Source: Candidatus Rifleibacteriota bacterium (GTDB taxonomy: Bacteria > Muiribacteriota > Ozemobacteria > Ozemobacterales > Ozemobacteraceae). From it: DNA of 25,427 bases. The position numbers were made by a program, and so were the translations under genes. The notes beneath the pieces were generated by a model that saw nothing but the letters and a program-made list of their open reading frames with translations, did not search any database and was not told the origin of the DNA. Positions 4,560-23,802 of the stretch are shown piece after piece. Numbering within the stretch: position 1 is the stretch's first letter; each line of letters starts with the position of its first letter. Location of the stretch: assembly GCA_051747585.1 (NCBI GenBank), contig JBNJGH010000043.1, positions 1 to 25,427 on the forward strand. The letters are read 5' to 3'.

Positions 4560-7454
4560 TTGGGTATAATGAAGCGAAGAATAAAAATGGTTTTACCTCT
4601 CATTTTTGCATTCGTTTTAACTCTGATGCCTTATTTATTACTGGAATTTACTCAGTTTCAACGTAATTCAGTGCAGCAAGAGCGCAATCTATATCTCTGG
4701 GAACAAAAAGCCAATAATTATCTTCAATTTTTTTCAATTCTCTGGTCTTATGAGTTGCAGTTAAAAAGGCGTATGATGGTTTTTCGCCGAAACCAGGGTG
4801 ATAAAATCATTAAAAGCAATGACCCGGCAAAAGCATTTGCCGCCGAGTTGAAAAAAAGATTTCCTGAAAGCTGGTTGCCTCTTGTTTCTTATGCAGGTAT
4901 ATGTGACTCCGATGGTGAAAATTTCAAACTTTTCAAGGGTGATTTGTTTGGAAATAGTCAGCGTTTTGTTTTCAAAACTATCCTCTCTGCCCTTGCTGGC
5001 GATTCCGAGCCGCAGGGATATCAAAAGAAACAACTCGATACATTTGTAAGCGGCAGACTTAAAAATGATTTAAATTTTGATTTAATAAAAAAGTATCGGC
5101 GCGGAAAAATTTGCTACGTAAAATACAAAAAGCAGAACCGTCTCATGATCTGGGATAAGATTCAAAATGGTAATAAAAAAATTGTTTATTGTTGTTTTTT
5201 TAAAAATGAATTATTAAGCGTTGATGAATCTTTGAAACTGGCATTGAAAATGTTGTCCGGGCCTTTTCCTGATGTTGATGCGGCGCTGGTTCCCGTAGAA
5301 AACAGGCTGCCCGATTATGATCCTGTTACCATCGATAACTTTGGTTCCCAGAGGGTAATGTCCGAGCTTCTTCTAAAAGAACAAGAGGGAGTATCGAGAA
5401 AAGAGCTGTTACCTGTTGGAAAAGTGGTTAAACACAGTGATTCCAACGTCATTCGTGGATTTGTCGCTTCTAGAATACCCTATGAGATCTGGCTGTTTAA
5501 ACCACCGGAAAAGAAAATTGTCAACGAGGCTGAAAAATTTATTTTCCTTTTTCGACTGGGTTTCTTCTCTATCTGGCTTTTATTTTTTACCCGGGTTCTT
5601 ATAACCGCTAAACCTCTTGGCTTAAGTATTTCAGGTTGGCTGAGTTTTATTTTTATTGCCATTGGAATATTGCCGTTGATAGTTCTTTATATCGCTGGTA
5701 CATATCATCTGGAGTCTTCGGCCTTTCGTTATGAACAGCAGACCTTGAAAAATATTATAAGGCAGTTTGAAGAAGCCGACGTGTCGGGTGGTTCAATTTT
5801 AACTGAATTTAGAAGACTTTGTCGAAAAATAGAAAGCCGGCCTTTCTGGAAAAAGGCTCTGGTAAAATGGGATCCCCAGGAGTGGAAAAAAGCCTTGAAA
5901 AAAGTCCCTGAATTGTTTGCAAAAAGTGGGCTTGAGTTAAGTTTTTGTTGCATTTATCCGCCTCCTGTAGCTGAATTAGAAATTCCTTATTATGACAGCG
6001 GTTTTGGCAAAAAACTTTCAAAGCGTGACAAGCATTTGGCCAGTTTTTATTATAACTGGGTAATGAAGTCATATTTTAATTTAAATCCCGATTTGACTTT
6101 TGGTAAGGATTTCCAAATGGAATTTTTTGAAGGCAAGGAAGGAGAAGAAATTCTTCGTCTCTTTATGGGAAATCGGGCGGATAGCGATTATTTTGAAATG
6201 GGCAACCAGCGCCAGTTTTTTTATCAGAATTTTATCATGAAAGACGGTATGATTCGTAACTGGTATTTTTTCAAAGCAGATGTTGTTGCACCTTTTCGCA
6301 ACTATCTCAAAGCCAAGGTAACCGATTGGAATGATATTAACAAAAATACGAATTTTGGTCTGGCAAAAGTAGACTATCCCGACTCGAAAACTATTCTACC
6401 CAAAAGCACGGGGAACAATAGAGATTTTATCCGTTTAAACAATCATGCCAGTCATTTAATTGAATTGGCAGCATCAACCAATTCCAGAATATTCAAGCAG
6501 AATGAAAATACCATGGTGGTTGTTTATCCTTGCCGCAAATCAGGTAATTTTATCTTAGCGGCGGTTATAGCATTTAGAGATATGCATGAGCGCATAAGAA
6601 CCCAAAGCTATATTCTGGCTTTAATTCTGATATTGTTAACAATTCCGGTATTTTTTATATCCCGATTTATCGCGACTTATCTGGTTAGACCGCTCAAGGC
6701 AGTTGAGGCCGGTTTAACCAGAGTTGCCGATCAGAACTTTACCTCGAGAATAAGTCTCAATAGACAGGATGAGCTGGGAACCCTGGCTGATGCTTTCGAT
6801 AAAATGGTTGATGGAATTATTGAAAGGCATAATTTAGGCAGATTTGTTTCTGCGGGTCTGGATAATAAAATCGCGAGCGAAGATAATGTAATCGCAAACC
6901 AGTGGGAAAAAAATTATGCAGCTGTTTTATGCCTCGATATAAGGGGTTTTACTACCCTCAGCGAAAAATATCTTGTTAGAGATATAGTTTCGATGTTAAA
7001 CGAGCATCTTTCCGAAATGGCGTTATGCATAACCAAAAGTGGAGGATTGATCGAGCAGTTTATTGGTGATGCCATTCTGGCCGTTTTTCCCGGTGAGGAT
7101 GAAAAACAAGCGGCTAATAAAGCTATTAGAGCGGCTATGCGTATGATGGCGGCTCACAATAAACTGGTCGAAAAAAGAAATAATGAAGGAAAATTTGTCT
7201 ATAAAGTGGGAATTGGGATTGAAGTGGGACAAATAGTTTCGGGAGTTGTTCAACTGGGCGACAAAAGCGAATATGTCATGATTGGCACTTCGAGAAGCCG
7301 CTCAGAAGAACTTGAATCTCAATCTAAACAGGGTAGAGCTTCAAGAATAATTTGTTCTGAAAAGGTTAAAAATCTTACGGATGATTATAGTTTTATAAAA
7401 CTCCCTGATGGCGATGGCTGGGAAATTGTTCTTCCGGAGGATCAGGAAGTATGA
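4560..7454 (+). CDS. Membrane-bound HAMP + class III cyclase-domain protein, C1-like half (metal-binding Asp pair only)
   Basis: About four TM segments, HAMP (RPLKAV...DELGTLADAFDKM), cyclase motifs LDIRGFT and FIGDA. The specificity Lys and catalytic Asn/Arg are replaced. Confidence 0.85.
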   Translation: MGIMKRRIKMVLPLIFAFVLTLMPYLLLEFTQFQRNSVQQERNLYLWEQKANNYLQFFSILWSYELQLKRRMMVFRRNQGDKIIKSNDPAKAFAAELKKRFPESWLPLVSYAGICDSDGENFKLFKGDLFGNSQRFVFKTILSALAGDSEPQGYQKKQLDTFVSGRLKNDLNFDLIKKYRRGKICYVKYKKQNRLMIWDKIQNGNKKIVYCCFFKNELLSVDESLKLALKMLSGPFPDVDAALVPVENRLPDYDPVTIDNFGSQRVMSELLLKEQEGVSRKELLPVGKVVKHSDSNVIRGFVASRIPYEIWLFKPPEKKIVNEAEKFIFLFRLGFFSIWLLFFTRVLITAKPLGLSISGWLSFIFIAIGILPLIVLYIAGTYHLESSAFRYEQQTLKNIIRQFEEADVSGGSILTEFRRLCRKIESRPFWKKALVKWDPQEWKKALKKVPELFAKSGLELSFCCIYPPPVAELEIPYYDSGFGKKLSKRDKHLASFYYNWVMKSYFNLNPDLTFGKDFQMEFFEGKEGEEILRLFMGNRADSDYFEMGNQRQFFYQNFIMKDGMIRNWYFFKADVVAPFRNYLKAKVTDWNDINKNTNFGLAKVDYPDSKTILPKSTGNNRDFIRLNNHASHLIELAASTNSRIFKQNENTMVVVYPCRKSGNFILAAVIAFRDMHERIRTQSYILALILILLTIPVFFISRFIATYLVRPLKAVEAGLTRVADQNFTSRISLNRQDELGTLADAFDKMVDGIIERHNLGRFVSAGLDNKIASEDNVIANQWEKNYAAVLCLDIRGFTTLSEKYLVRDIVSMLNEHLSEMALCITKSGGLIEQFIGDAILAVFPGEDEKQAANKAIRAAMRMMAAHNKLVEKRNNEGKFVYKVGIGIEVGQIVSGVVQLGDKSEYVMIGTSRSRSEELESQSKQGRASRIICSEKVKNLTDDYSFIKLPDGDGWEIVLPEDQEV

Positions 7455-10400
7455 AACTACCCAGATTGCTTGCTGTCATAAGTTCCTTTGTATTTATTTT
7501 TATTTTAATCCTTATTTTGCAGGGCAATATCAGCAGAAGCGAAAAAAGTTCTGAAGATTTTATCAGTCAGGCTTATACAATCTGCGAGGAAATGCAATAT
7601 AAAGCAGATGTTGATCTTCAGATACAGCAATGGTTCGCAAAATTTCGCGAAGAATTGAATGAAAAGCCTGGAACATATTTTCAAGGATGGAAAGAACCGG
7701 AATTTCTTGCTCATAATTTGCCACCCCATACCCTGGCAATTGCTGAAGCCAGTGAAGATGGTAGAATGCTGAGATTTGCAAATATAAAAGGAAATATGAA
7801 AGAAGGGTTGGCAGAACTCTTTGTTCTTCTTTCAGTTAAATACAAGGTTAAATTTTCTGATTACATCCTTAAAAAAGAGTTCTCAGACAAACTTGAAGAA
7901 TGTAATGACCTGCTTCAGGATTTTATCGGTTTTGATGCTGCCAGGATGAATATGATTGTGCTGCGCTCCTCAAGAATGTCTGTGTATAACGATGTAGACC
8001 ATAGAAATGTCTGGTTTTACTGGGACAGGTTTCAAAAAAAGGGCGGGGGCGAATTTTTTATTTTCAGCAAAATACGAGTAGAAGATCTCGAGCCTTATTA
8101 TGCTTATAGATCATACCTTAAAAACAATCTCTACCAGAGATTTTCCTGCGCTTATTACAATGAAGAAAAAAGAACTTTTATTGCCAGTCGAGATTTTGAG
8201 AGGAAGGTAGATGAGGATAGTCTCAAGGCTATAAGCAGAGCTGCTGCCAGTATTGAAAAGAAACATGCTGATCAGTCTGAAATGCAGTTTACCCGTTTGA
8301 AAACCAAAAGTAAGCTTATTATTCTGGGCAGATACATTGGAATGGCAGGCCTTAGGCCTGTAGTCGCCTTTGATTTGCCTGCCAGAAATTACGGCAAGTT
8401 AGCCGACCCGGCCAAACTGCCCTTTCTGGTTATTCTATCTCTGGTTGTCGTTTTCCTGGTTAATGCTCTTGTTTTTGACCGGGGGCCGGTTGTCAGAGTC
8501 GGTTTTGTGTTGTTGATGGCAATCAGTTTTGCTATTCTAATGCCTTTTTTTCTGGGACAGTCGGTCTTCGATCTAATCTTAAAAGAAGCCTACGAAAAAG
8601 AACGTCTGAAAATTGAAAGGGATTTGCACCAGACTCTTATCGGTATAGACAGCGGATTTAAGTTTAATCAACTTAATTTGGCTCAGCGTATAGAGGAAAT
8701 ATTTAAGCGGCCTGAGATTATCAATAAACTGCATCAGGAAGAAGTTAGCTCTACTAGTGCAGATTTGCAGAATTCAATTACGGCCGAGCTGGTTGAAATT
8801 TTCTTTGCTGACCTGACTGAAGGTTACTCTGAAGTTCCTGAACAATATAGAACATTGAATGCTCTTATTATTGCCGGTCCCAATGGTTTTATAAGATATT
8901 TCAACAAATATCGCGATAAAAAAATCTTTTCAGAAAACACTCTGGATACGATAGAGTCAATGTATATTATTTTAACTACCTTCAAGAATCAATTGTTTAA
9001 ACTTTACCCTGAGGAAAGCTTTGATCCCGAATTTTACCAGCAGCATCAAAAAGATTCCGAAAGCAAAATAGAAAAACTCAAGTTTGAAGAAATTCGTGAT
9101 AAATTGCAGAAATCCCTTGGCCCTGAGAAATTTCACGAAATCATGTACAGCAAAGTTTTAAGTATGACTTTGCGTTCTACATTAGGGCGGACTTTGATTA
9201 CCAGCTATCCAGTAAAATACAAAAATAAATACCGATATTTTGCCAGTGTTGTATGGGATGAATTTTCCGTTTGTCCTACATATTTAAGACGAGCATTTGA
9301 TCTCCGTCTCAAGGCAGATAAAAGAGAAATCGAAGCTTCTGAAAACTCGTTTTTTCAAAAGCTGGACCCGGCAAACTATATTTCAAGAAAGCCTATAGTG
9401 CTTATGGCATACGATGGCTTTCGATTTGATGCTTTTTCTACTCTCGATAATGAGCCACAGGTGTTGAGCAATCTTACCAAAGATACTTATAGAAGTAAGA
9501 TGCTGCTGAAGCACGAAACCTCAGGCAAAGATGCTTCACTTTATGAGATTTTTCCCGGTAAAAACATGTCGGTTTATGTTATTGGTGCTAAACAGAATAT
9601 CACTCATCTGCAACAGATAAGAAGATTGAGAACCAGCACTTTTATTATTGCAATGATTATCTATCTTATCTTTGCCTTTTTTGCGGCAAAAAATCTAAGC
9701 AGATCTTTTACCAGCCCATTGCAGCATATTTTATGGGGTCTGAATAGAGTTGAGAAAAATGATTACTCAGTTCGTCTTAAAGCAAATCGCGAAGATGAGT
9801 TTGGCTCTATTTCGCGGGCGTTTAACAACATGACCCGAAGACTGAGCGAAAAAGATCTGCTGGGCAAATTTGTATCTGATCCGGTTAAGCGCCTGGCTGC
9901 AGATCCTGAACTTTTACTTCAGGCCTGTGAAGGAGTAGAAGAAGAAGTAACTATCGTATTTGCCAGGCTGGAAAATTTTTCTGAGCTTGCTTTACAAACC
10001 AGAGAAGATGAGGCCAGACAGTATCTTGAATTCAGTTTAAGCAAATTTTTCAAGCGAGTCGAAGAATGTGGCGGAGAAATCGATAAGGTTATAGGTTCTC
10101 AGCTTCTGATTGTCTTTTTTCACCGTAAACTTGGCAAGAAAAAGGCTGTTGAAGCAGCCAAAAAACTTGCTGAAACTATTACAAAAGATTTTGCCGGCAA
10201 ACACAGCTTTAAACCTGTTTTCGGTGTCAATATGGGACGGGTCATTTCAGGTATTATCGGCGCTCCTTCAGTAAGAATGGATTATACAATCATAGGTGAT
10301 CCGGTTAATGTGGCTGCTCGATTATGTTCTCTGGCAAACAGTAAAAATCGACCCATAATTATTTCCGGACAGGTTAAAGAAATACTGGGAGAAGATGTTA

Positions 10401-10474
10401 AAGCCGAAAGGATTAATATTGAAAAAGTCAGGGGCAAGCGACAGGAGGTTAAGGTATTCAGTCTCTTCAGCTAG
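7451..10474 (+). CDS. Membrane-bound HAMP + class III cyclase-domain protein, C2-like half (K/T/N/R only)
   Basis: ATGA overlap with the previous gene. TMs, HAMP (SPLQHI...DEFGSISRAFNNM), DYTIIGDPVNVAARL intact. Both metal-binding Asp are replaced (FARL, IGSQ). Confidence 0.85.
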   Translation: MKLPRLLAVISSFVFIFILILILQGNISRSEKSSEDFISQAYTICEEMQYKADVDLQIQQWFAKFREELNEKPGTYFQGWKEPEFLAHNLPPHTLAIAEASEDGRMLRFANIKGNMKEGLAELFVLLSVKYKVKFSDYILKKEFSDKLEECNDLLQDFIGFDAARMNMIVLRSSRMSVYNDVDHRNVWFYWDRFQKKGGGEFFIFSKIRVEDLEPYYAYRSYLKNNLYQRFSCAYYNEEKRTFIASRDFERKVDEDSLKAISRAAASIEKKHADQSEMQFTRLKTKSKLIILGRYIGMAGLRPVVAFDLPARNYGKLADPAKLPFLVILSLVVVFLVNALVFDRGPVVRVGFVLLMAISFAILMPFFLGQSVFDLILKEAYEKERLKIERDLHQTLIGIDSGFKFNQLNLAQRIEEIFKRPEIINKLHQEEVSSTSADLQNSITAELVEIFFADLTEGYSEVPEQYRTLNALIIAGPNGFIRYFNKYRDKKIFSENTLDTIESMYIILTTFKNQLFKLYPEESFDPEFYQQHQKDSESKIEKLKFEEIRDKLQKSLGPEKFHEIMYSKVLSMTLRSTLGRTLITSYPVKYKNKYRYFASVVWDEFSVCPTYLRRAFDLRLKADKREIEASENSFFQKLDPANYISRKPIVLMAYDGFRFDAFSTLDNEPQVLSNLTKDTYRSKMLLKHETSGKDASLYEIFPGKNMSVYVIGAKQNITHLQQIRRLRTSTFIIAMIIYLIFAFFAAKNLSRSFTSPLQHILWGLNRVEKNDYSVRLKANREDEFGSISRAFNNMTRRLSEKDLLGKFVSDPVKRLAADPELLLQACEGVEEEVTIVFARLENFSELALQTREDEARQYLEFSLSKFFKRVEECGGEIDKVIGSQLLIVFFHRKLGKKKAVEAAKKLAETITKDFAGKHSFKPVFGVNMGRVISGIIGAPSVRMDYTIIGDPVNVAARLCSLANSKNRPIIISGQVKEILGEDVKAERINIEKVRGKRQEVKVFSLFS

Positions 10475-11809: not shown

Positions 11810-12751
11810 ATGGCAGTAACCGAAGTAATTGCCAGACTATATGACTCAGGAATGCAGAAACTGGAAAAAAAGGCTGAAGCTGCTGACAAAGAATTCAGCG
11901 AGGTTTTGAATGAATTGAAAAAGTCAGAGCAAAGTGAAGATCAATGCAAAACCTGCACTGAGGACGTGGAAAAAGCAGAGGGTGGTGAAGCAAATGACGC
12001 TATTGAAACCTCTGGCAATGAAGAGGTTGCGTCGGCAGCCGGCTTTAGATTCAGTATATTTATAAGAACAAGCTCCAGCATACAAAGCTATGGAGACGAT
12101 ATGATGAACCGATTCATCGATGCTACCAGAGATTTCACCAAAGCATTATACCAACAGGATACCCAAAAAATAGATGGTCTGGATTCATACCTGGGACAGG
12201 CCCAGCAGGCCGCAACTTCAGGACAACAGCAAACCCTGGATTTTGTCGACCAGATACTCAGTGCAGCAGATAACGGATTGAAAGCTGCCACAAACTCCAT
12301 AAATGCAGCAGGTATGATGTCGGGTTTTAATCTTTCGATGAACTCTGCTATGCCGGGCACGAGCTCAGCCGATATAGCCGGAGTATATTTGCAGGATGCA
12401 TTTAAAAATGGATTTCCGACTAATAATCCAACAACTACAGCAAAAAGCTCTGATTTAAAAATTATTAAGCAACAGACTGATTATGATGAAACAGCTGAAT
12501 TACAGAAGATAAGCAATTCAAATGAACCCGGCGAAAATCAAATTCTGGATAAATTTCTTGAAATGCTCGACGAAATGACATCAAATTTTGAAAAGCCGGC
12601 GTCTGCCATAAGCGAATATAGTTTTAAATTCGCCTACAGCAGCTTGTTTCAATCAAATGCTTCAGGCGTTGAACAGGAAGAAGCAGTTGTTGATTCAGTT
12701 CAAGACAAAGGTACGGATGCGAGTGAAAGTAATGAAACTTTAAAAGCTTAA
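11810..12751 (+). CDS. Hypothetical acidic, low-complexity protein (313 aa)
   Basis: Long ORF with strong SD TAAGGAGG and a downstream terminator. No recognisable catalytic motif. Confidence 0.75.
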   Translation: MAVTEVIARLYDSGMQKLEKKAEAADKEFSEVLNELKKSEQSEDQCKTCTEDVEKAEGGEANDAIETSGNEEVASAAGFRFSIFIRTSSSIQSYGDDMMNRFIDATRDFTKALYQQDTQKIDGLDSYLGQAQQAATSGQQQTLDFVDQILSAADNGLKAATNSINAAGMMSGFNLSMNSAMPGTSSADIAGVYLQDAFKNGFPTNNPTTTAKSSDLKIIKQQTDYDETAELQKISNSNEPGENQILDKFLEMLDEMTSNFEKPASAISEYSFKFAYSSLFQSNASGVEQEEAVVDSVQDKGTDASESNETLKA

Positions 12752-15968: not shown

Positions 15969-18059
15969 GTGAGCAAAAAGAACTTCAGAACCTACAGACT
16001 TCAGGTGGTGGTTTTCTTTTCATTTCTGGCGCTGTTTTCTCTAATTGTCGCCGGAATAATTTTATATGGTTATCGAACCAACACCGAAATAATGCTTAAA
16101 ACTTCTGACGAACTGCTGTATCAGATCTCAGAAACCATTATCAAGCAAACGGTTAAACACTTGGAACCGGCGCAAAAAACCGGTTATTTGCTCAGGCGGA
16201 TGATTGAAAGAGGAACTACTTTTAACAGCCGTCCAGATCTAATCGAAACCCTCTTTATGGAAACTCTTGATATTTACCCCCAGTTTTCTGCCGTATATCT
16301 GGGCGATGAAAGCGGCAACTTTATTATGTCGCGTAGAAAAATAAACGGCGATTTTACTATAAAAGTTATTTCCCGTACTTCTGAGCCTGTAGGCGTAATA
16401 GAGGTAACCCGTACATCTGGGGGCGAAATGATTAGTACAGACTCGAGTATGGTTATCGACTACGACCCACGCGAAAGACCCTGGTATATAGCCGCCAAAG
16501 AGCAGGAGAAGGCTGTCTGGAGTAGTGAATACCGGCTTTTTTCTGATCAGGTGCCGGGCATTACCAGTGCGCATCCGGTTTTTGATGACAATGGGGCTTT
16601 TCTGGGAGTAATAGGAATAGATTTCAGACTTGGGGAGCTTTCAGAATTTTTAAAAAGCTTGAAAATTGGAAATTCGGGAATTGCCTTCATATTAGATAAA
16701 ACAGGTAATGTTCTTGCCTATCCTGAAAGATCAGACATTCTTGATCGTGTCAATGCCTCACCGCGCTCACCTATACAGGAAGAAATAAATAGCGGCTGGA
16801 TAGGCAAAGCGCTGAATATTTTTCTTGAAAATGAACAAAGAAAATTTATTTTTACTCATAACAGCATTCGCTATATTGCATCTTTCAGACGCTTTCCCCT
16901 AAGCTACGGAAAAGAATGGAACCTGGGCATTGTCGTGCCTGAAGATGATTTTACCGGACCCATTGCCAGAACCCACGAAACAACTCTGCTTTTTTCTTTC
17001 TGGTTACTTATTATTGGCGGATTTTTAACCTCCGCACTTTCGCGAGAGCTTACCGAGCCAATTAAAAGTCTTACTTTCGAAGCAGATAAAATCAAAAGCC
17101 TCGATTTTGAAGGCGAAATAAAAATTAAATCGCCTGTTACCGAAATACAGCGTATGGGCGAAACTATGAATTCAATGAAAAAGGCTTTGAATGCTTTTAA
17201 AAAATATGTTCCTTCAGGCATTGTCCAAAGTCTGGTTTCAACTCGTGACGATGCCAGGCTCGAGGCTCAATCAAAAGAAATAACTCTTCTTTTTACTGAT
17301 ATTTACGATTTTTCTACGATTACCGAGCGTGTGCAACCTGCTGAACTTATGGAGCAGCTTTCATTATATTTCGATGAAATTGGTGCGATTATTCATAAAC
17401 ATGAAGGCACTATCGATAAATATATCGGCGATTCGGTGATGACTTTCTGGGGTGCGCCCCTTAGTGATGATGATCAGGCTTTAAAGGCATGTCGGGCAGC
17501 AATGGAAATTATCGAAGCTGTTGCAAAGCTTAACGAAAATTGGAAAAAACAAAATCGAAACCCTTTGCACACCAGGATAGGTATTAATACAGGAGACTCG
17601 CTCGTGGGAAACTTTGGTTCTTCTGACAGATTCAATTACACCGCTATCGGTGACCAGGTGAATCTGGCCAGCAGGCTCGAGGCGCTGAATAAAATTTATC
17701 TTTCCCGCATTATTGTCAGTGAATCTACCATGCTTAAGGCTTCAGGCGAGTTCGTTTTCAGGCCTTTAGATATTGTTGCGGTAAAAGGAAGGAAAAAAAG
17801 CGTTAAAATTTACCAGCTACTCGGAAGAATTGATGACGAGAAAGCCGAGCAAAATAAAAAGCTTTCTGAGATGACAGTAAAAGCCCTGGAAAAATATCTT
17901 GCCCGCGAATGGAGACAGTCTTACGAGTTATTTCAGGAAATTCTTGGCGAATTTAAAGACGATTATATTTCAGAAATGTATATGATTCGCTGCCGCGAAC
18001 TAAACGAAAAACCTCCGGGAAAAAACTGGGATGGTGTTTTTAAAATAGAATTTAAATGA
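15969..18059 (+). CDS. Membrane adenylate cyclase: TM-Cache-TM-HAMP-class III cyclase, C-terminal TPR-like tail
   Basis: Cache motif YDPRERPWY. Complete catalytic set FTDIYDF, DKYIGD, YTAIGDQVNLASRLE. K and T indicate ATP specificity. Confidence 0.92.
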   Translation: MSKKNFRTYRLQVVVFFSFLALFSLIVAGIILYGYRTNTEIMLKTSDELLYQISETIIKQTVKHLEPAQKTGYLLRRMIERGTTFNSRPDLIETLFMETLDIYPQFSAVYLGDESGNFIMSRRKINGDFTIKVISRTSEPVGVIEVTRTSGGEMISTDSSMVIDYDPRERPWYIAAKEQEKAVWSSEYRLFSDQVPGITSAHPVFDDNGAFLGVIGIDFRLGELSEFLKSLKIGNSGIAFILDKTGNVLAYPERSDILDRVNASPRSPIQEEINSGWIGKALNIFLENEQRKFIFTHNSIRYIASFRRFPLSYGKEWNLGIVVPEDDFTGPIARTHETTLLFSFWLLIIGGFLTSALSRELTEPIKSLTFEADKIKSLDFEGEIKIKSPVTEIQRMGETMNSMKKALNAFKKYVPSGIVQSLVSTRDDARLEAQSKEITLLFTDIYDFSTITERVQPAELMEQLSLYFDEIGAIIHKHEGTIDKYIGDSVMTFWGAPLSDDDQALKACRAAMEIIEAVAKLNENWKKQNRNPLHTRIGINTGDSLVGNFGSSDRFNYTAIGDQVNLASRLEALNKIYLSRIIVSESTMLKASGEFVFRPLDIVAVKGRKKSVKIYQLLGRIDDEKAEQNKKLSEMTVKALEKYLAREWRQSYELFQEILGEFKDDYISEMYMIRCRELNEKPPGKNWDGVFKIEFK

Positions 18060-21243: not shown

Positions 21244-22851
21244 TTAAAAAAGGTTGTCGTTTTGCGAAGCTTCTAGAACAATCGGGCTGCTCAAGAGCGA
21301 CAAGGGCCCGCTTCCCGGAGTAGGTTTGCTGTTTACTCTGCTGTGAGCGGATTTTTCCTGTCCCAGGGAAAATCTTTTTGCCGGAGATGTGGTGTCGCTG
21401 CTTCGTCGGTTCGGACAAATCGATGCATGACCTACGGTTTCGACTTTTATCATGTTTGTTCCGCCGCTTCGGCCAACCGGAAGACCTGCAACCAGAATAA
21501 CAGTATCACCATCTTGTATCATGCCGGTTTTTCGGCTGAGTTTTATTGATTCGCGATACAGCTCTTCAATACTGTCGAATTTATAACCCATAACCGGAGT
21601 AATACCCCAGTTAATGCTTAGTTGATTATATAGCTTCTGATTTGAAACAACGGCAATTATTGGAATTCCGGGCCTGAGCTTGGAAAGCGCCTGTGCTGTT
21701 TTTCCTGTTTCGGTAACGGTTATTATTGCAGCTGCACCTACATTGTAAGCTGTTGCTATTGAAGCGTCCGTAACTGCGCTGGTGCGATCCGGGTATTTTT
21801 CAAACTTGGAAAAAGCTGAATAAATTCTTTTGTAATCAATTGCGTCTTCGGTATTGCGAGCAACCCGGTCAAGAAGCTCGACACAATTAACCGGATATTT
21901 TCCGATCGATGTTTCGCCAGAAAGCATTACGGCGGAAGTAAAATCATATATTGCGTTTGCTACATCCGAAACCTCTGCTCTGGTTGGTCGAGGCGACTTT
22001 ATCATGGAGTGCAGCATCTGAGTTGCTGTTATGACTGGTTTCCCGGCCATATAACATCGTCTGATAATCTCTTTTTGCACTATGGGAACTTCTTCAGGAA
22101 GCAGCTCTACGCCAAGGTCACCTCTGGCAACCATAATTCCGTCTGCTACTTCGAGAATCTGATTGAAATTTACCAGACCCGCATGATTTTCGATTTTTGC
22201 AATTACTTTGATTTCAGGTTTGCCTTCAACATCGAGAATAGCTTTGACTCTTCTAATGGTGTCTTCTGATTCTGAAAACGAGACGGCGATGAAATCAAAA
22301 TCGTTCGCAGCTGCAAATCTAATATCTTCCCGGTCTTTAACAGTAGGGTTGGGAAGATTGAGCTGCAGCCTGGGTACATTTACGCCGCGTTTTGACTTTA
22401 TTATGCCATCATTCATGATTTCACAGACAATGTTTTCATTATCCGGAATACTTATAACCTGTAAATTGATCAGTCCATCGTCGAGCAGAATCGTATTGCC
22501 CGCCTCAATCATTTCAGGCAGTTTATTGAAACTGATGCTTATTTTTTCAGCATTTCCGATTACGTCCTGGGTTGTAAGGGTAATGGTTTTTCCTGTTTCG
22601 AGTTCCAGGCAATCGTTTTCGACTTCACCGGTTCTTATTTCGGGACCTTTGGTGTCGAGAAGCAATGCAACGGGCTTTCCCATTTCTTTTCTGAGTTTTT
22701 TTATTCTTTCGACTCTAGTGCCGTGCTCCTGAAAATCTCCATGGGAAAAATTAAGTCTGGCGACATTCATTCCGGCATTGATAAGATCTTTTAATACATT
22801 TTCTTCTTCTGCGGCAGGGCCAAGTGTGACTAATATTTTGCTTTTTCTCAT
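21244..22851 (-). CDS. pyk: Pyruvate kinase with an atypical C-terminal tail
   Basis: ARLNFSHG, DTKGPEIRT, IAKIEN, GIMVARGDLGVE, ATQMLHSM, PTRAEVSDVANA, MLSGET. Confidence 0.97.
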   Translation of the reverse strand: MRKSKILVTLGPAAEEENVLKDLINAGMNVARLNFSHGDFQEHGTRVERIKKLRKEMGKPVALLLDTKGPEIRTGEVENDCLELETGKTITLTTQDVIGNAEKISISFNKLPEMIEAGNTILLDDGLINLQVISIPDNENIVCEIMNDGIIKSKRGVNVPRLQLNLPNPTVKDREDIRFAAANDFDFIAVSFSESEDTIRRVKAILDVEGKPEIKVIAKIENHAGLVNFNQILEVADGIMVARGDLGVELLPEEVPIVQKEIIRRCYMAGKPVITATQMLHSMIKSPRPTRAEVSDVANAIYDFTSAVMLSGETSIGKYPVNCVELLDRVARNTEDAIDYKRIYSAFSKFEKYPDRTSAVTDASIATAYNVGAAAIITVTETGKTAQALSKLRPGIPIIAVVSNQKLYNQLSINWGITPVMGYKFDSIEELYRESIKLSRKTGMIQDGDTVILVAGLPVGRSGGTNMIKVETVGHASICPNRRSSDTTSPAKRFSLGQEKSAHSRVNSKPTPGSGPLSLLSSPIVLEASQNDNLF

Positions 22852-22944: not shown

Positions 22945-23802
22945 TCAATTGCGCTGTTGTTGTATCATTTGTTCGAGACTTTGCCAGCCTTTAAGCTGGT
23001 CAGGGGTTAAGGTGCAATTGCCTGAAGTTTGTTGGCGGTGTTTTATTGCCCTTAGCCATTTGCGGGTCTTTCTCGGTAGCTGCAATTTTTGATTTACTAC
23101 CAGACCGGTAATTTTCTGTTGCTGGTGTGATCGTAAGACTCTAGTTTTCTTTTTGTTTGGACGGTAAGAAAAATCGGTCAATGCTGTTCGGCTTAGCCTG
23201 AGCAACTCTCTGATTGCCGTGTCATCGTCTTGCATCAAAGAAAAAGTAATGTCGTCGGCATACCTGGTATAGGTTGCGTCATATTTGTTGGCAATGCCGG
23301 CAAGACGTGCATCGAGTCGGTAATTGATCAGGTTGCTCAGTCTGGGGCTGGTGGGAGCACCCTGAGGTAGAGAGCCCCGGTAGGTCGTTAATCTAGTCAG
23401 GAACTCTGCTACTTCGTTGTTCCAGCCGATTTTCTTGAAATAATACTTTACCCGGGAACTTTTAGTCGAGGAGAAGTAATCTTTTATATCAATTTTTATT
23501 ATTACCTTTTTCCCGAGGTGGGGCAGTGCGTTATGAACTATAGATTTCTCAGACTCAAAACCGCAACAGCACAGGTGAGTTTTAAGGCCTGCAAGCAGTC
23601 GGTAGTTAATTAGTCTTTGAATCTTTTTTAGCTCTGCATCGGGAGCTTGAATTGTTCTGATTTTTCCGCTTTTACTTTTTAGTTCGAATTCCCGATAAGC
23701 AGGCTTGAACTGATCAACTTTTATTTGCTTAACTTTTAAAAAGTTTCCCAGGTCATCAAGATTTTTACCGGTTAATTTAGTTATCCAGTCAAAAAGTCCC
23801 AT
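22945..23802 (-). CDS. Retron-type reverse transcriptase, minimal (285 aa)
   Basis: KIDIKDYF, LPQGAPTSP and YTRYADDITFS, plus retron signatures NAxxH (NALPH) and VTG-like KITGLVV. SD GGGAG upstream. Confidence 0.9.
   Translation of the reverse strand: MGLFDWITKLTGKNLDDLGNFLKVKQIKVDQFKPAYREFELKSKSGKIRTIQAPDAELKKIQRLINYRLLAGLKTHLCCCGFESEKSIVHNALPHLGKKVIIKIDIKDYFSSTKSSRVKYYFKKIGWNNEVAEFLTRLTTYRGSLPQGAPTSPRLSNLINYRLDARLAGIANKYDATYTRYADDITFSLMQDDDTAIRELLRLSRTALTDFSYRPNKKKTRVLRSHQQQKITGLVVNQKLQLPRKTRKWLRAIKHRQQTSGNCTLTPDQLKGWQSLEQMIQQQRN

Follow-up and report, generated by a model that had tools for sequence, protein, structure and literature searches.

An overlapping gene pair in a Candidatus Rifleibacteriota genome predicted to encode a heterodimeric adenylate cyclase with one working site

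Organization of the locus

The window analyzed here, a 25,427-nucleotide stretch of contig JBNJGH010000043.1 from a Candidatus Rifleibacteriota bacterium (assembly GCA_051747585.1), contains two overlapping genes, A and B, that encode large membrane-bound proteins with class III cyclase domains. A reading made from the sequence alone had proposed that these proteins are complementary, individually inactive parts of one adenylate cyclase (AC). The features to which the text refers are as follows (aa, amino acids):

4560..7454, + strand: gene A, C1-like subunit, 964 aa from TTG 4560 or 961 aa from ATG 4569
4647..5534, + strand: predicted extracellular domain 1 of A (approximately residues 30 to 325), without Pfam match
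5703..6611, + strand: predicted extracellular domain 2 of A (residues 382 to 684), predicted dCache-like (double PDC) sensor fold
6666..6818, + strand: HAMP domain of A (residues 703 to 753), Pfam match; in the model it packs against the HAMP domain of B
6912..7391, + strand: class III domain of A, metal-binding half (D793, R795, F797, T798, E802, D837)
7436..7454, + strand: GGAGG (7436 to 7440) inside A and ATGA stop/start overlap (7451 to 7454)
7451..10474, + strand: gene B, C2-like subunit, 1007 aa, layout as in A
9695..9847, + strand: HAMP domain of B (residues 749 to 799), Pfam match; 80 to 84% identity in the three closest orthologues
9941..10462, + strand: class III domain of B, adenine-selecting and transition-state half

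Both open reading frames (ORFs), the ATGA overlap and the motifs quoted in the sequence-only reading are present. A hydropathy scan placed four transmembrane (TM) segments in each protein, near residues 10, 330, 361, and 685 of A and near residues 6, 323, 350, and 728 of B, and Pfam matched HAMP and Guanylate_cyc domains in both (PF00211 E values of 1.6e-12 for A and 1.4e-13 for B). The proposed TM/large domain/TM-TM/large domain/TM/HAMP/cyclase layout was therefore recovered. From the order of the TM segments, with HAMP in the cytoplasm, the two domains of 300 to 350 aa in each protein should be extracellular. A and B are paralogues over their full lengths (profile-profile probability of 100%, 928 columns, 14% identity).

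The ATG at 4569 is a more likely start for A than the TTG at 4560, because the motif M-x-R-R is found there in all six A orthologues, in five of which it represents the first residues. The GGAGG lies ten bases upstream of the start of B and, together with the ATGA overlap, makes translational coupling of the two genes likely. Promoter and terminator scans gave no signal above chance level.

Division of catalytic residues between A and B

Both metal-binding aspartates are kept in A, as D793 (LDIRGF) and D837 (FIGDA), and the positions of the catalytic Lys, Thr, Asn, and Arg are occupied by Q833, V906, S913, and E917. In B, R839 and S883 stand at the two Asp positions, and K879, T946, N953, and R957 are retained. 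The complementary degeneracy that had been noticed between the proteins is thus real, and it is widened by the C-terminal KGK loop, before which A ends and which B has as RGK (residues 994 to 996). Taken together, A and B provide all six canonical residues and the KGK loop. In homodimeric bacterial ACs the six catalytic residues reside in one protomer; neither A (DD, Q/V/S/E) nor B (R/S, K/T/N/R) has this set. Instead, the Asp pair and K/T/N/R/K are divided complementarily between two domains, as in C1/C2-type enzymes. The class IIIb trait, Lys and Thr/Ser at the base-selecting positions, is present in B, where K879 and T946 align with those of CyaB, and not in A. At the second Asp position and the residue next to it (S883, Q884), B of the window departs from its family, since 80 of 88 B partners carry D or E there. 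The Arg at the first Asp position of B is perhaps a compensating charge, which is speculative.

Structure models

The model of A was confident (predicted local distance difference test [pLDDT] score of 88.7), and its cyclase domain was nearest to CyaB and CyaC (Z of 23.9, root mean square deviation [rmsd] of 2.1, and 179 aligned residues versus CyaB). Extracellular domain 2 was modelled with a pLDDT of 94. Its top Foldseek matches were dCache-type sensor domains (best E value of 5e-7), a class defined by an extended N-terminal helix and two PDC modules, to which it compared with a Z of 9 to 10 and an rmsd of 4 to 7 Å. None of 56 family members gave a Cache match in Pfam, and the sequence of the sensor domain had no noteworthy match in the PDB. 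A weak homology was detected between domains 1 and 2 (profile probability of 91%, E value of 1e-6, 102 columns).

A complex of A706-964 and B751-1007 was modelled with ATP and Mg, together with three controls. The A/B complex scored 0.84, versus 0.01 for the best control, with at least 95% of contacts agreeing between runs and a partner pLDDT of at least 86. The mark applied to this score is reached by 116 of 157 solved pairs and by 2 of 215 mismatched pairs. The model contains a mixed A/B HAMP bundle, and residues 946 to 957 (T/N/R) and 993 to 998 (RGK) of B lie in the interface. The complex suggested as a check by the sequence-only reading was thereby obtained, but the pass may stem from resemblance to class III dimers of solved structure, because these are well represented among known structures, and it does not place the heterodimer above a homodimer.

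Pairing of A and B in a two-contig relative

An unbiased census was taken of a relative whose assembly comprises two contigs (G014), in which every PF00211 match (58) was retrieved and scored. It yielded 21 intact, 18 A-type, 18 B-type, and 1 doubly dead domain. Thirty-six domains had a same-strand cyclase neighbor within 3.6 kb; all of them were A or B, arranged in strictly alternating pairs, and no intact domain (0 of 21) had such a neighbor. Every A (18/18) and every B (18/18) was found next to its complement, with no like-with-like connection among 24 adjacent links. The pairing pattern is not expected by chance, because none of 100,000 label shuffles reached it, bearing in mind that paralogues are nonindependent. 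Three of the 18 pairs were fused into one chain, and two intact solo proteins (387460 and 4380447) displayed the same four-TM layout. Homologues of A and B occurring independently, without the complementary pattern, had been named beforehand as an outcome that would speak against a heterodimer; the pattern held. If genes were annotated singly, 36 of the 58 cyclase domains would be called dead, where there are likely 18 working enzymes.

Split and fused pairs in other relatives

A larger set of 80 regions was picked from at least 150 best matches to B. The survey of A/B pairing proposed by the sequence-only reading found 88 A-B pairs in 20 genomes. Sixty-three of the pairs were split, 33 of these with a four-base overlap, and 25 were fused. 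The fused forms are in-frame chains of approximately 2,000 aa, distributed over 13 genomes, that follow the TM-C1-TM-C2 order known from mammals; their cyclase domains are 1,011 to 1,324 aa apart, with TM segments between them. Among 186 complete matches in the 80 regions, 92 had lost an Asp, and N, R, and T were kept in all of these (92/92) and K in 89/92. Conversely, both Asp were kept in each of the 91 matches that had lost N or R.

Conservation in the 88 pairs runs in opposite directions in A and B and spans whole faces of the cyclase fold. In A, R795 is conserved in 99% of the sequences, F797, T798, E802, and N814 in 100%, and E919 in 98%, and 94% have a gap in place of the KGK lysine. 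In B, the corresponding values are 97% for K (85/88), 100% for T (88/88), 100% for D950, 99% for V952, and 95% for the G of KGK. The second pocket is constrained as well: the D or E at the second Asp position of B (80/88) is followed by a Lys in about 98% of cases, and the lysine position of A is occupied by K, R, or Q in 80/88. In the six orthologues, the cyclase domains are 47 to 60% identical, versus 19 to 52% for the sensors. Distances within A and B are correlated (rho of 0.71; best of 999 permutations, 0.26).

The family to which the pair belongs is large, with four TM segments, putatively dCache-like sensors, and HAMP coupling, and its homologue clusters are found mostly in Candidatus Rifleibacteriota. 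One relative, Candidatus Ozemobacter sp. (L142), shares 49% in the best segment. Synteny of the locus was kept in the orthologue regions tested, with flanking DHH, Sel1, and EEP genes syntenic. Sel1 and EEP lie on the strand opposite to the pair and were not counted as parts of it.

Cyclase domains of the window's own genome

The census of the window's own genome (G000; C numbers denote its contigs) yielded 34 class III domains: 11 intact, 11 A-type, 7 B-type, 4 partial, and 1 with both halves lost. Complete pairs are located on C16 and C43 (A then B) and on C167 (B then A). Single frames with an A and a B domain occur on C113 (1,984 aa) and C212 (cut at its 5' end). After three A genes that lie at contig ends come truncated ORFs that match the B profile weakly to moderately (E values of 1e-7, 0.001, and 0.03). 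An intact cyclase of the same architecture as A and B is encoded on C14. The genome also has 10 cNMP (cyclic nucleoside monophosphate)-binding matches, proteins that could read the cyclic AMP (cAMP) signal.

A sub-lineage with B preceding A, His at the first Asp position, and a three-pair array was found at C7:1102-4110 and at 1698308-1713169 of G014 (L122, L123). A conserved cyclase homologue with two TM segments, standing alone and with both catalytic halves lost (C75:6186-8435; 1518484-1520760 in G014), is a candidate regulatory pseudo-enzyme.

Proposed mechanism and alternative explanations

We consider it probable that A and B form an obligate heterodimeric class IIIb AC with one working site, a reading to which the residue pattern and the pairing point. 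One ATP site and one dead pocket are likely in such a dimer, because C1/C2 enzymes, soluble guanylate cyclase (sGC), and engineered bacterial monomers divide labor in this manner. Residues, layout, pairing, and fusions were observed; from them we infer dimerization in cells, activity, product, and signaling. The two aspartates that bind Mg and the phosphate loop (D793, D837, R795-T798) would come from A. B would contribute K879/T946 for adenine selection, N953/R957 for catalysis, and the RGK loop for pyrophosphate binding. Four different extracellular domains would feed signals through the fourth TM segment of each chain into the mixed A/B HAMP bundle and via the linker helices to closure of the single site, so that cAMP output would depend on both chains. 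The mirror pocket, lined throughout the family by an acid and a lysine from B and a basic or amide residue from A, would be noncatalytic and might serve as a structural plug or a regulatory pocket. Since it is not drifting freely, it may be a plug rather than a ligand site.

Besides the likeness caveat on the complex model, several observations weigh against the one-site heterodimer. The set of 80 regions is biased towards B-likeness, freedom from bias applies only to the censuses of G014 and the own genome, and related sequences do not count as independent. R is retained in 7 of 91 A's, and an acid remains at the second Asp position in most B's (80/88). Co-duplication of neighboring genes would also produce a correlation between A and B distances. 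Exceptions to pairing exist: an A without adjacent B in an A-A-B run (L051), a lone B (L093), a surplus B within a B-A-B run (L097), a doubly dead pair (L273), a solo 183-aa domain with DD but no R in the window's own genome (C173), and the conserved solo domain with both halves lost (C75, G014). In total, the unpaired domains of the relatives set comprise two A's and one B cut by contig or region ends, one A alone, one B alone, two B's with an A only downstream, and one A with a B only upstream.

It is improbable, in our estimate, that an A/B dimer makes another cyclic nucleotide or, as a pseudo-enzyme, only binds nucleotide. Residue-based product calls can fail, as illustrated in passages of PMC11224242 by 6YII, which was deposited as an 'adenylyl cyclase-like ATP-binding protein' and is a clade A pyrimidine cyclase. 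In the present pairs, however, B keeps K (85/88) and T (88/88) as class IIIb ACs do, the six canonical residues and KGK are all present across the pair, and no effector gene is co-oriented with it.

We give equally little weight to active homodimers of A, B, or both, formed via noncanonical residues, with adjacency reflecting tandem duplication only. Replacement of K, T, or N is tolerated in certain mycobacterial cyclases. The acid at the second Asp position of 80/88 B's and certain B-then-A lineages that lose only one Asp or only R would agree with such activity. Yet B of the window has neither Asp, and A has its R changed to E and no KGK loop. Losing one Asp or the Arg inactivates an AC tested in PMC4821796, and homodimers would need neither strict alternation, with 0/24 like-with-like links, nor A+B fusions.

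Still less probable is a role of A and B as separate subunits, dominant-negative or tuning, whose main partners are intact cyclases or proteins of other pairs. Partners would be at hand, given 34 class III domains in the same genome, including the intact C14 protein of the same architecture; arrays of two or three pairs allow mixing, and solo dead domains exist. The fixed one-to-one adjacency, the fusions, and the mirrored A and B subtrees argue against it, and some cross-pairing between pairs, which may occur, is compatible with the one-site heterodimer. Neutral decay of two duplicates that are complementary by coincidence is hardly credible: a few fragmented loci (L048, L063, L091) and one doubly dead pair (L273) resemble it, but it is already contradicted by the conservation counts, with open frames and opposite faces conserved in 20 genomes and with cyclase domains more alike than sensors in the six orthologues (47 to 60% versus 19 to 52% identity). 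On balance, the sequence data support the heterodimer interpretation put forward by the sequence-only reading; fused forms, expansion of the family, and repeated origins go beyond it.

Evolution of complementary pairs

A quick tree covering 150 domains (with 4 partial rows left out) united the four-TM family in one clade (Shimodaira-Hasegawa-like approximate likelihood ratio test [SH-aLRT] support of 96), with the intact C14 protein and its G014 orthologue in a basal position and A and B subtrees that largely mirror one another. A concatenated tree was built from 98 rows, comprising 96 pairs and, as outgroup, the two intact proteins, doubled; support was by SH-aLRT only. At its base the pairs are split and show complementarity already, and two clades contain the fused forms (3 state changes). 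One early fusion followed by later fissions costs about one step more on our reading of the tree. Under either scenario, complementary loss would have preceded fusion.

Complementary pairs with GAF, dCache, or other sensors were placed elsewhere in the tree, apart from the four-TM family. Approximately unbiased (AU) tests on 47 chosen rows rejected one clade of all A (p of 0.0003) and one clade of all B (p of 0.0002), which supports repeated origins of complementary pairs, with four lineages in the sample. In other genomes of the phylum, complementary pairs or fusions occurred in 13 of 16 regions, which had been picked for close matches; among them were tandem-GAF pairs that are soluble and one dCache pair. 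L231, L232, L227, and L228 exemplify the soluble tandem-GAF type of cyclase pair, whose losses are complementary in the same way (Pfam on L231 and L232).

Outside the phylum, 82 domains in 79 loci of other lineages comprised 80 intact ones and 2 that form one pair in a Bacteriovoracaceae genome; 81 genomes around the latter added one further complementary pair and one doubly dead pair. The pairs around the Bacteriovoracaceae genome (L179 5212-8056, L272, and L273) are composed of proteins of approximately 480 aa. The N-terminal part in L179 matches no Pfam family, and in L273 nearly all catalytic residues are gone in both members. No adjacent complementary pair was present among the PF00211 matches listed for G026, G028, G029, and G036 (one genome each).

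We lean slightly towards the broader view that bacteria invented one-site heterodimeric ACs several times, that Riflebacteria hold, within single genomes, an intact-to-split-to-fused series ending in an eight-TM TM-C1-TM-C2 chain that parallels the animal enzyme, with complementary loss before fusion, and that the freed second pocket, in which an acid and a lysine are conserved, is regulatory.

Other genes in the window

The window contains an intact dCache-HAMP class III cyclase (DD, KTNR) at 15969-18059 (+). The group in which it falls in the tree also contains a split, complementary dCache pair from G030 (L230), for which the split arose separately. A 313-aa acidic protein without Pfam match (11810-12751, +) is syntenic with the pair in six orthologue regions, and a 700-aa protein without Pfam match (348-2450, -), with an N terminus that may be pilin-like, adjoins the locus in five. 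A stand-alone 285-aa reverse transcriptase (RVT_1) is encoded at 22945-23802 (-). Pyruvate kinase at 21244-22851 (-) has about 65 C-terminal residues beyond any Pfam match, possibly a frameshifted tail.

Comparison with known systems

In mammalian cyclases, C1 provides the residues that bind the metals, and C2 those that bind base and ribose, as stated in part of PMC9223806. The window pair shares with the mammalian membrane AC this placement of the Asp half and the base/ribose half, with one active and one degenerate pocket, and fused members of the family have the same order, Asp half first. The mammalian enzyme, however, carries class IIIa domains and two 6-TM anchors on a single chain, whereas the window pair consists of two genes with four TM segments, two large, putatively dCache-like extracellular domains, and HAMP in each half. 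A/B is of Thr type (IIIb) rather than Asp type, and its closest solved relatives are bacterial CyaB, CyaC, and OaPAC. The two systems appear to be analogous, not orthologous. Metazoan sGC alpha/beta is likewise a true two-gene heterodimer with residues divided between subunits; the split renders homodimers inactive and leaves a pseudosymmetric cavity, according to a section of PMC3591389. Unlike sGC, A/B is predicted to be a bacterial membrane receptor with ATP-type K/T, and it has no H-NOX or PAS match in Pfam.

Bacterial class III ACs homodimerize with two equal sites, as described in parts of PMC9552081 and PMC4821796. HAMP-coupled class IIIb enzymes of the CyaB/CyaC type resemble A/B in fold, K/T specificity residues, and sensor-TM-HAMP-cyclase logic, and intact members exist within the A/B family itself (C14 of the own genome; 387460 and 4380447 of G014), but neither A nor B has the full residue set. 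The nearest experimental counterpart is a mycobacterial AC whose Asp-less (D300A) and Arg-less (R376A) monomers, as reported in part of PMC4821796, are inactive alone and complement each other to an active and regulated dimer. The division of labor is the same; that enzyme is a laboratory construct, whereas A/B is a natural, conserved state.

Chloroflexus sAC-like proteins have a two-domain layout in one chain. In A/B, by contrast with sAC-like and PycC tandems, the domains are in separate genes or 1,011 to 1,324 aa apart with TM segments between. The sAC-like enzymes of Chloroflexus are cited in an excerpt of PMC11006738. A 2022 review states, in one section, that no fused, dimeric form of the class III ACs is known in bacteria (PMC9552081). 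This needs a caveat, because clade A PycC, a bacterial protein, carries two cyclase domains in succession on one chain (part of PMC11224242). PycC of clade A (6YII) shares with the fused forms two class III domains in a single bacterial chain; its domains, however, are soluble and directly adjacent, and it makes cyclic pyrimidines in defense.

Passages of PMC9433096 and PMC10745434 contain nothing on bacterial heterodimers, and, in a literature collection with few subscription papers, titles and abstract openings described neither a two-gene bacterial heterodimeric AC nor Riflebacteria cyclases. The principle of a heterodimeric cyclase is known from eukaryotes; what the present family adds is the intact-split-fused series and the repeated origins of complementary pairs. 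As intact, split, and fused versions of a single receptor architecture occur naturally, it becomes possible to test in E. coli in which order events took place, how specific partners are, and how the degenerate pocket is used, and the pairs suggest two-input receptors for cAMP engineering.

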